Virus record (IMG/VR): IMGVR_UViG_2851938318_000001 | Source of the DNA: a virus | Lineage: Duplodnaviria > Heunggongvirae > Uroviricota > Caudoviricetes | Strand: one strand, 5' to 3' | DNA: 64,000 bases | Shown: positions 5,692 through 39,633 of the stretch, in pieces | Position numbering within the stretch: the first letter of the stretch is position 1 | How the letters are laid out: each line of letters starts with the position of its first letter | Translations under genes and position numbers: made by a program | Notes under the pieces: generated by a model | The model's database searches: none | Seen by the model: the letters and a program-made list of their open reading frames with translations, nothing else | Told to the model about the DNA's origin: nothing

Positions 5692-5740
5692 GTTTTCTTA
5701 TCCTTTTAAACAAATTGTTTTCTTAATAAGATAATTGCGA

Positions 5741-5765
5741 TAAAAAAGGCGTCCAACTGGACGCC
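5741..5765 (-). terminator. Rho-independent terminator downstream of the SPFH gene
   Basis: ggcgtcc-aact-ggacgcc stem-loop followed by a T-run on the minus strand. Confidence 0.55.
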
Positions 5766-5782
5766 TGAACTTTTTAGGGGAG

Positions 5783-6613
5783 TTATTTCACTGTAATGAA
5801 AGGAGTGTTAGCCCCTTGAGTCATGTACTGCGGTAACTGGCCATTCCATTTATTGATGGCTTCCAATTCCATAACGTTCGGGTTTTGACGCAGAGCTTCA
5901 CCGCGCAGACGAATGGCGTCTGCTTCTGCTTGCGCACGAGCACGGATAGCATCAGCTTCACCATTAGCCTGTTCACGTAGCATATTCGCCTCAGCTTTAC
6001 GTTGTTCAACTTCCTGCTGACGTTGCAGAGTACGCTGGTTAGCCGTTACTTTGGCGTTAATAGATTCAATGACAGTTTTTGGGTAATCAGGCTTTCCAAC
6101 CCATGACAGGCTCAGTACCTCAATACCAACCGGAGACATCTCTTTCTGAATATCTTTCAGTGCGTTGTCCAGCAATTGTGCCTTACCACCGTCGATAAAT
6201 GAGTCAGTGGTCATACGGCTGGCCAAACGGTTTAGAGAGTCGGCAATTTTCTGACGCAGATCTGATTCGGTGATATCGTCTACGCCTTTGCGATAGGTCT
6301 GGAACACCGTCGTTACCTTGTCACGATTAACCAGATACGCAACGCCAATTTTGTGACCAATAGCAGTACCGTCACTCATCTGGAATGTGAACGGCTCGTC
6401 GTAGGTCTTCATTTGTTTGAAGGTCGGGAATACGTAAAGTTCGGTGTTAAGACCTGTCCATTGGCGACCAACGCCAACCACTTCACCAATCCCTTTGTCT
6501 TCACCTAATTTGTTTACTTTGATGCCAACGTATCCAGGCTCCACGCGATCGCAGCCAGTAAGACCCATTGTGCAAATAGCCGCCAGAGCAACTGCAAGTA
6601 AACCTTTCTTCAT
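5783..6613 (-). CDS. SPFH/band-7 (prohibitin/HflC-like) domain lipoprotein
   Basis: Lipobox LTGC after signal peptide; SPFH-like core and C-terminal Ala/Glu/Arg coiled-coil. Confidence 0.65.
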   Translation of the reverse strand: MKKGLLAVALAAICTMGLTGCDRVEPGYVGIKVNKLGEDKGIGEVVGVGRQWTGLNTELYVFPTFKQMKTYDEPFTFQMSDGTAIGHKIGVAYLVNRDKVTTVFQTYRKGVDDITESDLRQKIADSLNRLASRMTTDSFIDGGKAQLLDNALKDIQKEMSPVGIEVLSLSWVGKPDYPKTVIESINAKVTANQRTLQRQQEVEQRKAEANMLREQANGEADAIRARAQAEADAIRLRGEALRQNPNVMELEAINKWNGQLPQYMTQGANTPFITVK

Positions 6614-6616
6614 TAC

Positions 6617-6817
6617 TTATTTCCCCTTTGCTTTGATTAATGAGTTGATAAACTTACGACCAGCAATAAGACCGATTACAGGAGCACCAAAACCAACGAT
6701 AACTCCAAACATGACGGCTAAATCACTCTTGGTAGAAATCAGCGACGGAACCAGTAAACCGTAGATGAGAGCCACTGAAAGGCCTGTGGTTACTGCCAAT
6801 AGATAGATTTTGATCAT
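6617..6817 (-). CDS. Small membrane protein (66 aa) immediately upstream of the SPFH gene
   Basis: Two predicted hydrophobic helices; 3-bp gap to SPFH start. Confidence 0.5.
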   Translation of the reverse strand: MIKIYLLAVTTGLSVALIYGLLVPSLISTKSDLAVMFGVIVGFGAPVIGLIAGRKFINSLIKAKGK

Positions 6818-6879
6818 GTGTTTTCCTATGTGGTTGTTATGCGAAAATAATAAGTAAGTACTTATATATTTTCAAGAGA

Positions 6880-6907
6880 TAAAAAAGGCGTCCTGTGGAC
6901 GCCTTGT
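6880..6907 (-). terminator. Rho-independent terminator downstream of the recA-like C-terminal fragment
   Basis: aaggcgtcc-tgtg-ggacgcctt stem-loop followed by a T-run on the minus strand. Confidence 0.55.
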
Positions 6908-6909
6908 GT

Positions 6910-37337: not shown

Positions 37338-37443
37338 CTGGTAGGTAGTTACTTACTTATCACAATGAGCGGATGATAGCGACTGGTGGCAGTTTTTGGA
37401 AGTGGAAACGGAAGGGAGTTGTTCTGGTGGTGTCTTTTAAAAG

Positions 37444-37500
37444 ACCTGCTTCCGTATATATTTAATAAGTTACTTATTATTTATATATACAGAAGCAGGC
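37444..37500. other. Large AT-rich palindrome (17-bp arms) upstream of the GIY-YIG gene
   Basis: acctgcttccgtatatat ... atatatacagaagcaggc flanking taataagttacttatta. Confidence 0.4.
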
Positions 37501-37610
37501 ATAACTTGTCGTCTTAGACGCCCAGAAGCTCTACACTTTGAGCCTGTTAAATTGATTAAAAACTTATGTGTAAAATAGAACGCATTAGTCAGTAGCTAAG
37601 AGATGCAATA

Positions 37611-38378
37611 ATGGACGATTTATCGGTATACGCGAGATCATTGGATAAGGCTAAATACTATGTTTACTGTCTCTATGATACAGAAGACAAGATGAAAAGA
37701 CCGTTTTACATAGGAAAAGGCAAATCGACTCGTTGTCTCGATCACATCAAGTATCCCGATGACTCTCCCAAATCCATGCGGATCAAAGAACTTTTGGCTA
37801 ATAAAAAATTAGGCATAGATATTCTTCGTCATGGTATGGATGAAACCACAGCCAAACTTGTTGAGGCGACATGCATCGACCTTATGGGGGTCGGAGAGCT
37901 TACGAATAAGGTACGAGGAAGTGGTTCCATGATGGGCAGAATATCACTGGACGCCTACCATCACTTAGTGCTGCAAGAGGAAACTGAAATTGCTCCTGAG
38001 CACGCCGGTCTTGCCTTCCTGCTAAACAGCACCTACAAGTCAGGAATGTCCGCTCTGGCATTATATGAAGCTACGCGTGGCGTATGGGCAAAGGTTCCAA
38101 GAGACGAGAATCTCAAATATGCCTACGCTACATATGGTGGGCTAATAATGGAAGTTTATCAGATTGAATGCTGGGTCAAAGCCGGTTCTCAGCAGTACTT
38201 TACAAGGGATATAGCTCTTGGCCCCGACACAAAACGTTATGAATTTGTTGGCAGAATAGCCGATGAGCATATTAGAAAACTGTATGTAGGCAAATTAATC
38301 AAGAAGCCACCAAGCTACGGTAGCCCTTTTGTGAAGGTTGGGGTGGTTAGGACTGAACATAGTGTTAGCGCGGCATAA
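37611..38378 (+). CDS. GIY-YIG nuclease-domain protein with uncharacterised C-terminal domain
   Basis: N-terminal YYVYCLYD...PFYIGKGK matches the GIY-YIG motif; opposite strand to flanking replication genes. Confidence 0.55.
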   Translation: MDDLSVYARSLDKAKYYVYCLYDTEDKMKRPFYIGKGKSTRCLDHIKYPDDSPKSMRIKELLANKKLGIDILRHGMDETTAKLVEATCIDLMGVGELTNKVRGSGSMMGRISLDAYHHLVLQEETEIAPEHAGLAFLLNSTYKSGMSALALYEATRGVWAKVPRDENLKYAYATYGGLIMEVYQIECWVKAGSQQYFTRDIALGPDTKRYEFVGRIADEHIRKLYVGKLIKKPPSYGSPFVKVGVVRTEHSVSAA

Positions 38379-38394
38379 AGCTGACACTGTAGTT

Positions 38395-38432
38395 ATGCAT
38401 TGGCGCAATGTACGCGCCAATGCATGATTTTT
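38395..38432 (+). terminator. Rho-independent terminator after the GIY-YIG gene
   Basis: 12-bp stem atgcattggcgc/gcgccaatgcat followed by gattttt. Confidence 0.55.
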
Positions 38433-38790
38433 AACCTTTCTTCATCAACTCTCGTTTGATTTCATCGGTACGCATCGTGACATCGGCAGCGGTGATCGCC
38501 TCATTCAATTTCACGATGTCCTCGATTTCCTGCGGTGACTTCTCTGCCAGATGGAAAATGGCTGCTCGAATCACGTCAGAACGAGTGAACTTCTCGAAGC
38601 GAGGGATGAACTTCATCATCTCCAGCAGTTCGAAGTATTCGTCCTCCAGTGACATTGTGCGGCTTTTAATTTTCTCTTTGCCACGAGTCGGGCGTCCCTG
38701 TGGTCTGACTGGTTGGCGCAAAGGAGTTGTGTTCTTAGCCGGTGCATCAGGCTCTTTGCGCTTTGCTAGGTCACCCATTTTCATGGACAT
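38431..38790 (-). CDS. Partition protein, ParG/ParB-like small centromere-binding protein
   Basis: 119 aa, basic N-terminus; immediately downstream of ParA with overlapping stop/start. Confidence 0.5.
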   Translation of the reverse strand: MSMKMGDLAKRKEPDAPAKNTTPLRQPVRPQGRPTRGKEKIKSRTMSLEDEYFELLEMMKFIPRFEKFTRSDVIRAAIFHLAEKSPQEIEDIVKLNEAITAADVTMRTDEIKRELMKKG

Positions 38791-39458
38791 TATTCTTCTT
38801 CCTCCAGACTCAACAGATAATCTACAAATTCTTCAAACTCGGCTTCCGCCTTTTTGTCGCGCTCGCTACCGGTCATTTCAAAGATAGAACGACCAGACTC
38901 TTCCGCATCATCATAGACGTTGCGGTTATATAGATTGACTGGCGCAGACTCGATTCCAAACGTCTCAACAATCTCTTTAGCCGCCAGAATGCGAGACACT
39001 TGTGATGGCAAAGCCGGGCACTGGTTCATGACCGCGCGGACCTTCACTTTATCGTTTACATTGCGAACATTGTCGATAATAGGATCGATGTCACGTAAAG
39101 ATTTCAAATCACGACGCTTAGGACGCAGCGGGATAATGATAACGTCAGCCATCAGCATCGCTTGTCGCTGAATTTCGGAGTCGAAGCCACCAGCATCTAC
39201 CACTACAAACTCAGCTCTACCCTGAAGCGATTTTAGGTGCTTAATGATGTCATCCTGAACGTATGCAAAAGGAATCAGCTCAAGGTCTTCGTTCTGTCGA
39301 CGGTCTTCACACCAGCTCGTTGTCGTGCGCTGAATATCTATATCGGTAATATAAACCTTCTTCTTCTTTTTGACTTTCAGGCAAACGGCAATTTGCTGGG
39401 CAACGGTGGATTTGCCAGGCCCGCCCTTTGTGCCGCCAACCACAAAGATCTTGGTCAT
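38790..39458 (-). CDS. parA: Partition ATPase ParA (small type Ib ParA/ParF-like)
   Basis: Deviant Walker A GGTKGGPGKST; 222 aa. Confidence 0.75.
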   Translation of the reverse strand: MTKIFVVGGTKGGPGKSTVAQQIAVCLKVKKKKKVYITDIDIQRTTTSWCEDRRQNEDLELIPFAYVQDDIIKHLKSLQGRAEFVVVDAGGFDSEIQRQAMLMADVIIIPLRPKRRDLKSLRDIDPIIDNVRNVNDKVKVRAVMNQCPALPSQVSRILAAKEIVETFGIESAPVNLYNRNVYDDAEESGRSIFEMTGSERDKKAEAEFEEFVDYLLSLEEEE

Positions 39459-39633
39459 TGGAGAGTTCCCTTTGCGTATATAATTATCGTCTGAAACAAC
39501 TTGTTTTCTTATATGTGATATAGCCTAAATGCCTACGGCTGCGGTGTAAAGGTTAAATGGTAGGTTGTGATTAACAATTTGAACCGCCCCGGAAATCCTG
39601 GAGACTAAACTCCCTGAGAAAGAGGTAAACAGG

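Follow-up and report, generated by a model that had tools for sequence, protein, structure and literature searches.

The window analysed here is a stretch of 64,000 nucleotides (nt), the viral record IMGVR_UViG_2851938318_000001 of IMG/VR, and this work deals with motif A, a short palindromic sequence located just upstream of four of its genes and interpreted below as a putative operator. The four genes, all of them on the minus strand, are a DUF7238 gene of 141 amino acids (aa), the gene of a DnaB-like helicase, parA and a CobT-like gene (cobT). From position 19000 to 39600 the window is 100% identical to the Escherichia coli plasmid pRM9131-1 (NZ_CP028430.1), 96-98% identical to the phage-plasmids Cyrano (the LF82 plasmid) and CMS-2020a, about 82% identical to Salmonella phage SSU5, and 74-80% identical to plasmids of Klebsiella, Enterobacter and Citrobacter, to pHCM2-type plasmids and to pMT1 of Yersinia pestis. 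Its identities to pRM9131-1, Cyrano, SSU5 and pMT1 mark the window as a piece of an SSU5-like phage-plasmid of E. coli, in this case one with many insertion sequence (IS) copies.

Motif A in the window

The initial annotation of this DNA had described a palindromic 20-mer, identical at 5704-5723 and 36560-36579, with a variant upstream of parA and a partial copy upstream of cobT. The two 20-mers (TTTTAAACAAATTGTTTTCT) are indeed exact matches, and a third occurrence with three mismatches lies at 39490-39509; 0.02 matches were expected in shuffled sequences and none of 100 shuffles reached three. The palindrome proved to be shorter than described, since it is confined to the central 13 nt, AAACAA-N-TTGTTT (core AAACAANTTGTTT; AAGAAAACAAnTTGTTTaa on the coding strand of the four genes), and does not extend over the whole 20-mer. 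The motif scan proposed with the annotation gave strong enrichment, with three exact cores in the window where a first-order Markov model predicts 0.013, and four copies with at most one mismatch where 0.39-0.44 were expected; the expected numbers of exact cores, here and below, are analytic Markov expectations. The distance of 12-15 nt to the Shine-Dalgarno (SD) sequence given there has to be corrected, as the core ends 2 nt before the SD of the 141-aa gene and 8 nt before that of the helicase gene. The core is separated from the ATG by 16 nt at the 141-aa gene, by 19 nt at both the helicase gene and cobT, and by 35 nt at parA.

Copy 1 (5704-5723, core 5708-5720, minus strand; AGAAAACAATTTGTTTAAAA on the coding strand) precedes the 141-aa DUF7238 gene (5266-5691, minus), whose SD, AAGGAT, is at 5700-5705, and orthologous cassettes are found in many IMG/VR contigs. 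Its promoter side (5731-5766, minus) holds a -10-like AATTAT at 5731-5736 and an intrinsic terminator at 5747-5766, called by the terminator scan, which ends the upstream gene with the hairpin GGCGTCCAGTTGGACGCC and a T-run. From its position, and from the TATTAT present in SSU5 and in the IMG/VR orthologues, AATTAT would be the -10 box of this cassette.

Copy 2 (36560-36579, core 36564-36576, minus) occupies the 43-nt spacer between a 249-aa gene and the DnaB-like helicase gene (35204-36544, minus), with a -10-like TAATAC at 36581-36586. Cyrano, SSU5 and two Klebsiella plasmids have retained this site at the corresponding position, with variation only in one half-site base and in the central base, which is T, A, C and G across four lineages. 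Farther along, the spacer between the helicase and primase genes (35130-35165, minus) has a degenerate half-motif, GAAACAACTTTTCT, followed by a sequence, ACAAAAGAAAAACACATG, that resembles a ribosome-binding site, perhaps the remnant of a cassette or else a small open reading frame.

The variant upstream of parA and the partial copy upstream of cobT are both present. The former, copy 3 (39490-39509, core 39494-39506, minus; coding strand AAACAAGTTGTTT), precedes parA (38790-39458, minus) and is flanked on both sides by -10-like hexamers, TATATC at 39517-39522 and GATAAT at 39483-39488. Cyrano, SSU5 and the Klebsiella plasmid have it unchanged, and the divergent plasmid pKSB1_9A_3 carries the variant AAACATCTTGTTT. 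The latter, copy 4 (22579-22597, core 22582-22594, minus; coding strand AAATAATTTGTTT), is degenerate, with one mismatch to the core, and lies upstream of the CobT-like gene (20454-22562, minus); the orthologous cobT sites are perfect in SSU5, the Klebsiella plasmid and pMT1. Just upstream of the cobT cassette, where other cassettes have a terminator or a second copy of the motif, there is a conserved hairpin, CTGCGCGAA...TTCGCGCAG (22616-22648, minus), whose SSU5 counterpart is CTGTACGAACAG...CTGTTCGTACAG, the stem being maintained through changes on both sides.

Motif A in related phage-plasmids

The relatives contain exact cores in large excess over expectation: 8 against 0.027 in pRM9131-1, 11 against 0.011 in SSU5 and 9 against 0.016 in the Klebsiella plasmid. 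With at most one mismatch, 16 copies were counted in the complete pRM9131-1, 20 in the first 100 kb of SSU5 and 13 in the first 100 kb of the Klebsiella plasmid NZ_CP092279.1, where 0.4-0.8 were expected. Every site inspected is intergenic, mostly 8-40 nt 5' of a start codon, and orthologous positions have remained occupied in Cyrano, SSU5, two Klebsiella lineages (one of them divergent) and pMT1, the last retaining two, although the spacers around them have diverged. The genes concerned are not only those of replication and partition, as the initial annotation had it, because the complete relatives show motif A also before nrdB, a TerB-like gene, terS at the head of the late operon and a series of small hypothetical genes. 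The sites of the window are thus a small sample of a family-wide regulon, comprising about 15-20 genes or operons in each SSU5-like phage-plasmid.

The late operon begins with two direct copies of motif A, 25 bp apart, after which come a conserved hairpin, AGAGCGC..GCGCTCT, and a T-run immediately 5' of the terS start codon (pRM9131-1 59231-59310, L004:24231-24310; SSU5 56-135; near 64441 in the Klebsiella plasmid). This hairpin may be a terminator or an antitermination checkpoint.

Architecture of the cassette

A scan of viral contigs with AAGAAAACAANTTGTTTA found at least 120 loci, and the 119 non-redundant contexts among the matches listed are the basis of the statistics in this section. 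Their consensus is ..cc(T)TAAACAnnTTGTTTTcTgCCTTTT..tTGnGATAATaAcaCCAAcAAGAAAACAAnTTGTTTAaGGAg..ATG, and the elements follow one another in this order: a terminator hairpin or a second, inverted copy of the motif; an extended -10 box (TGnGATAAT or TGGTATTAT); about 9 nt of the form aCaCCAAc; the palindrome, AAGAAAACAA-N-TTGTTTaa; the SD sequence; and the ATG. In 65 of the 119 contexts the core is preceded, at a distance of 12-15 nt, by a -10-like hexamer (GATAAT in 30, TATTAT in 14), and 44 of these 65 hexamers bear a TGn extension. Matches to a -35 box are poor, mostly 3/6, and there is no usable -35. The spacing on the SD side is looser, with 8-40 nt (mode 12) between core and start codon; for 46 of 87 cassettes among the matches listed this distance is 11-14 nt.

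In 18 of the 119 contexts (about 16%) a second copy with at most two mismatches is located exactly 51 bp upstream of the first, an arrangement seen in 2 of 9282 background windows. The second copy is inverted together with its asymmetric flanks, and the AGAAAA extension points to the promoter from both sides. If transcription starts about 7 nt after the -10 box, the two copies would be centred near +14 and -38, and the downstream palindrome would cover about +8 to +20.

The central base of the palindrome is unconstrained (A in 37, T in 31, G in 27 and C in 24 contexts). Both halves show single-base variants, none of them matched by a compensating change in the other half, and the changes that are tolerated are mirror images of each other, at pairs 1/13, 4/10 and 6/8.

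Two other promoter arrangements were considered and set aside. A geometry like that of the P1 late promoters, with the palindrome upstream of the -10, does not agree with most cassettes, in which 1-4 nt separate palindrome and SD and a downstream GATAAT is seen only at the parA copy. A canonical sigma-70 promoter was found at none of the motif-A sites by the promoter scan. The assignment of the cassettes as promoters relies on the conserved TGnGATAAT and should be taken as a prediction from sequence.

Expression in the lysogen

Expression of the motif-A genes in the plasmid state can be read from the normalised values published for an overnight culture in lysogeny broth of the LF82/Cyrano lysogen, whose median is 9.8 (PMC9928086, supplementary table S1). 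The values of terS (7), cobT (8), CYRAN_58 (6), CYRAN_101 (7), nrdB (13) and the helicase gene (21) show that motif-A genes are silent at the RNA level despite their extended -10 boxes, and that the parA operon is partly on, with 50 for parA, 89 for the gene that follows it (CYRAN_29, encoding a protein of 119 aa) and 55 for the next one. Such moderate expression of the parA operon is as expected of an autoregulated operon.

The same data set (PMC9928086) gives the levels of the regulators that the element encodes. The CI-like repressor reaches 96 and a FljA-like protein 18, and the ParB-like proteins CYRAN_119 and CYRAN_120 stay at 5 and 9.5; the 119-aa gene is thus about 9-fold and the FljA-like gene about 2-fold over background. 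The lack of expression of the two ParB-family proteins in the lysogen makes them poor candidates for repression in the maintenance state, and a ParB- or KorB-like protein is unlikely to be the binder of motif A there.

Motif A as a putative DNA operator

The exact dyad with its free centre, the non-compensatory variants, the phased and inverted upstream copy, the coupling to the -10 box, tighter than that to the SD, and the negligible hairpin described below all point to a site that would be read as double-stranded DNA. Chances appear about even that motif A is the DNA operator of a dispersed regulon, placed in a promoter-leader cassette and working by analogy with the C1 sites of P1 or the KorA/KorB sites. 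A dimeric DNA-binding protein encoded by the element would recognise the 13-bp palindrome on the double helix at about +8 to +20 and, where a second copy is present, would also bind at about -38, at a distance of 51 bp, or some five turns of the helix. The bound protein would prevent open-complex formation or promoter escape, and the regulon, which would include many small early genes, the helicase gene, parA, cobT, nrdB and the late operon led by terS, would be kept silent during plasmid maintenance; it is in this sense that we infer repression as the direction of control. Of the functions suggested by the initial annotation, a repressor site in the 5' untranslated region appears to fit best, with the palindrome 12-15 nt downstream of a -10-like hexamer and next to the SD.

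The likeness to P1 resides in the organisation. In both cases one short operator, or putative operator, is scattered over a phage-plasmid in more than a dozen copies, each at the promoter of a lytic gene or operon, the replicative helicase included (ban in P1), and in both the lytic genes are silent in the plasmid prophage. The P1 operator is, however, an asymmetric 17-mer (ATTGCTCTAATAAATTT), whereas motif A, a 13-bp palindrome unrelated to it, follows the -10 and in some cassettes has a partner at -38. Compared without an alignment tool, the P1 operator and motif A have no resemblance, and the two would work alike rather than belong to one family. KorA and KorB of the IncP plasmid RK2, together with operators of the lac type at +11, offer a comparable geometry, because there too a 13-bp palindromic operator is found at many promoters of one replicon, and repression makes use of positions just 5' of the -35 as well as just past +1. 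The sequences are again unrelated, and the two ParB-family proteins of the element are those that the lysogen does not express.

The protein encoded after parA as candidate binder

The 119-aa gene (38431-38790, minus), immediately downstream of parA, encodes both a candidate partition partner and the first candidate for the binder of motif A, on account of the site in its operon, its expression in the lysogen and its unusual conservation. The protein was found in 796 plasmids, with 90-100% identity from E. coli to Klebsiella, far above the conservation of the backbone, and in a divergent lineage of the protein motif A is unchanged. It has a basic, disordered N-terminus and a pattern, KSRTMS-helix-FTRSDVIRAA, that is invariant down to 48% overall identity and is suggestive of a ribbon-helix-helix protein. 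Omega of pSM19035 and ParG of TP228 are comparable, being small proteins encoded after a Walker-type ParA with short sites in inverted arrangement in the parA promoter region, and here as there one protein could serve both partition and global repression. They differ in that their sites are 7-10 contiguous heptads or tetramer boxes at few promoters, instead of single 13-bp palindromes at about 20 promoters.

The conservation of this core gene, one site directly 5' of parA and the fact that only a single 13-bp palindrome, with no repeat array, was found upstream of parA could also mean that motif A is primarily a set of dispersed centromere sites for ParA and its 119-aa partner, with any effect on transcription being secondary. 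In the phage-plasmid N15 dispersed palindromic centromeres are located inside promoters, so such an arrangement has a precedent. Partition does not explain the fixed position of the motif relative to the -10 box and the SD in about 40 independent cassettes, and pMT1, with a P1-type ParAB and no 119-aa gene, still keeps its sites. A primary centromere role is therefore very unlikely; it would in any case be compatible with, and overlap, the DNA-operator interpretation rather than form a true alternative to it.

Evidence weighing against a DNA operator

Several results weigh against the interpretation of motif A as a DNA operator, and those on the candidate binder come first. No DNA-binding domain or fold was recognised in the 119-aa protein, with no match in Pfam and nothing from sequence and profile searches of the PDB. 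Its comparison with ParG by hhalign, using a provisional ParG sequence, gave a probability of 0.1, and its AlphaFold2 (AF2) monomer model, of predicted local distance difference test (pLDDT) 63, had no Foldseek match. Moreover pMT1 lacks the 119-aa gene and yet retains two motif-A sites. As to the cassette, the upstream copy is restricted to the 16% of contexts mentioned, the promoter-proximal half of the palindrome is perhaps slightly better conserved than the distal half (6 versus 11 variants, a difference that is not significant), and the consensus sigma-70 promoter scan made no call at the cassettes, which it misses because they have no -35. Motif A is also always in sense orientation to the downstream gene and directly abuts the SD in about half of the cassettes listed, features that an RNA-level mechanism would account for equally well.

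The cassettes without a -35, not called by the sigma-70 scan, could therefore depend on an activator instead of being repressed. Motif A would then be a positive-control site for an activator or polymerase-modifying factor of early lytic growth that the element itself encodes, marking a temporal class of genes and not a repressed class. With -35 matches of mostly 3/6, host polymerase alone would not suffice, and conservation reaches asymmetrically into the -10/+1 region (aCaCCAAcAAG). The motif-A genes, silent in the lysogen, rise only modestly when CYRAN_46, the Cyrano homologue of a 70-aa gene described below, goes up about 90-fold in macrophages (PMC9928086). On the other side, an activator centred at about +14 would be very unusual, and motif A heads genes of very different expected timing, from small early genes and parA to the late operon led by terS. 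Promoters with a TGn-extended GATAAT are normally active and need neither a -35 nor an activator. We consider positive control unlikely.

The sense orientation and the contact with the SD bring in the question of an operator in RNA, which the initial annotation had proposed by analogy with RegA or gp32 of T4. A structured operator can be set aside. The motif folds with -0.7 kcal/mol and a z of about -0.4, and the RNA structure prediction suggested with the annotation gave z from -1.1 to +0.4 for the four leaders of the window, that is, a negligible hairpin and no stable structure. An RNA hairpin as the operator was rejected in view of this folding energy, of z-scores like those of shuffled sequences and of the non-compensatory variants. 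The Rfam scan detected nothing at the motif-A sites, its only matches elsewhere being the ALIL pseudoknots of the IS copies, three tRNAs (RF00005) and a cspA thermoregulator. The RegA/gp32 analogy found no support in these folds, nor in the proteins, since none of the candidate proteins compared with Pfam and PHROGs, a set smaller than the whole proteome, matched RegA. RegA sites resemble motif A in being AU-rich and near the ribosome-binding site of many early genes, in a phage whose replication and recombination genes are of the kind found here. They have no palindrome and extend over the start codon, whereas motif A is tied more tightly to the -10 than to the start codon.

The notion of a translational operator gains a specific candidate regulator in a protein of the FljA family, encoded on the minus strand at 51572-52093 of pRM9131-1 (L004:16572-17093), outside the window, and identified as Flag1_repress (PF03614) with E = 5e-81. 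In this alternative motif A would be an operator in the mRNA leader, where the FljA-family protein would bind single-stranded AAGAAAACAAnUUGUUUAA near the SD, blocking ribosome loading and destabilising the mRNA, in the manner in which FljA of Salmonella silences fliC via the 5' untranslated region. The AF2 model of the protein (pLDDT 81.7) consists of two repeats of a helix and five strands, and its top Foldseek matches are all Hfq (probability 1.0, root-mean-square deviation 1.1-1.4 Å over 55-57 residues), so that the predicted fold is a tandem Hfq-like (Sm) fold. Faces of Hfq bind A-rich and U-rich sequences, and motif A likewise runs from an A-rich tract (AAG AAA ACA) into a U-rich one, always in sense in the predicted leader and, as given above for the 87 cassettes, most often ending 11-14 nt before the start codon. 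The gene is a core gene of SSU5-, pHCM2- and pMT1-type elements, present in all SSU5-like phages and in 834 plasmids, among them 345 of Klebsiella and 62 pMT1 plasmids of Y. pestis, and among phage records it is found only in SSU5-like phages. Klebsiella is non-flagellate, and the occurrence of this core gene in Klebsiella plasmids therefore makes host flagellin unlikely as its target, or at least as its sole target.

In Salmonella and Citrobacter the fliC leader has CAAGTTGT 9 nt before the SD, an 8-nt identity with motif A, which also occupies a predicted leader just 5' of the SD in an element with a FljA-family protein. FljA is reported to prevent the translation of fliC, acting on the fliC mRNA (PMC2652032). 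The likeness amounts to 8 nt only, is variable among Citrobacter strains and absent from fliC of E. coli K-12. FljA has one known target instead of the approximately 20 sites here, many hosts of the plasmids lack flagellin, and the dyad favours DNA. For a single-stranded RNA site an exact dyad with a free centre is unexpected, the hairpin is unstable, the inverted upstream copies near -38 fall outside the predicted transcript, and the spacing to the SD side varies from 8 to 40 nt against a fixed spacing to the -10. Moreover, the motif-A genes are at RNA background in the lysogen, which is more than translational control alone easily yields, and the FljA-like gene is there only about 2-fold over background. 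A translational operator of the RegA or gp32 type is unsupported, and the FljA homologue with its predicted tandem Hfq-like fold keeps the idea alive as a possible, if not probable, alternative. It appears rather doubtful that the FljA-family protein is a global post-transcriptional repressor acting on about 20 phage-gene leaders, with Salmonella FljA as a domesticated copy and the fliC leader evolved as an operator mimic. The predicted fold and the distribution of the gene suggest that the FljA family is RNA-binding and of phage-plasmid origin.

Motif B and the CI-like repressor

The element has a second dispersed palindrome, motif B (ATAGGTAAGT/ACTTACCTAT), whose pattern TAAGTANNTACTTA gave 23 matches against 1.8 expected and of which SSU5 and the Klebsiella plasmid each have about 20 copies. 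Copies in the window are found at 6851-6864, 14839-14852, 20422-20435, 23080-23093, 28722-28735, 32081-32094, 37342-37355, 43403-43416, 47616-47629, 55847-55860 and 62336-62349. Motif B is located in the spacer and the -10 of promoters of the TTGAAA...TATCAT type, and the genes behind it are cobS, the SSB/UvsY genes, the 249-aa gene and those of the holin, the tail fibre and the tail, late genes thus included.

One of these copies, GGTAAGCACTTACC at 23080-23093, lies in the leader of a CI-like helix-turn-helix (HTH) gene (23125-23511, plus strand, 128 aa). This leader carries motif B and not motif A, the Klebsiella orthologue having GGTAAGTACTTACC and that of pMT1 AGTAAGCACTTACC. Motif B is probably the operator of the CI-like repressor, and with motif B in the gene's own leader, motif A would therefore need a different binder; the CI-like protein is an unlikely one for motif A, as the E. 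coli, Klebsiella and pMT1 versions agree in this respect.

Between the HTH gene and a 70-aa gene (22661-22873, minus, phrog_2627) there is a divergent control region (22874-23124) with GGTAAG/CTTACC half-sites, which is probably the immunity switch. CYRAN_46, the gene with the strong increase in macrophages cited above, is the Cyrano homologue of the 70-aa gene. Outside the window, at L004:4731-5120, there is a homologue of CYRAN_98 that encodes an S24 peptidase of 129 aa, composed only of a LexA/UmuD-like C-terminal domain and devoid of a DNA-binding domain. CYRAN_98 is expressed at 148 in the Cyrano lysogen, the median being 9.8 (PMC9928086), and a peptidase of this type may cooperate with the separate HTH repressor in SOS induction.

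Other features of the window

Six copies of IS629/IS1203, of the IS3 family and each with an ALIL frameshift pseudoknot, are inserted at 1156-2369, 2716-3929, 7675-8888, 17665-18878, 39634-40847 and 51573-52786. They break the genes of an exonuclease, a recombinase, the tail protein J and an SbcC-like protein, and one copy lies about 120 bp upstream of the putative parA operator. Over its first 19 kb the window is arranged in another order than pRM9131-1, consistent with IS-mediated rearrangement. A cspA thermoregulator of full length (RF01766, 185.7 bits) accompanies a CspG-like cold-shock gene at 12720-13138 (minus) on this phage-plasmid. The three Rfam tRNA matches (RF00005) are at 27727-27970 (minus); the orthologous region of the pRM9131-1 record is annotated with tRNA-Asn, tRNA-Tyr and tRNA-Thr, and a separate tRNA-Ser is found about 200 bp farther.

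Implications for SSU5-like phage-plasmids

Phage-plasmids of the SSU5 type are very common in clinical E. coli, Klebsiella, Enterobacter and Salmonella, with about 800 plasmid records found; they bear resistance genes, and pMT1 of Y. pestis is a derivative of them. Their quiescence in the plasmid state and their switch to lytic growth are essentially undescribed, and full-text searches of the literature returned no paper mentioning motif A or any regulon of SSU5-like elements, the sequence itself giving 0 papers. The present analysis yields a regulatory map for them, composed of two dispersed palindromes, A and B, each at about 20 promoters, one predicted promoter cassette and a short list of candidate regulators. 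In addition, the predicted tandem Hfq-like fold and the core status of the FljA family bear on the origin of the repressor of flagellar phase variation in Salmonella.

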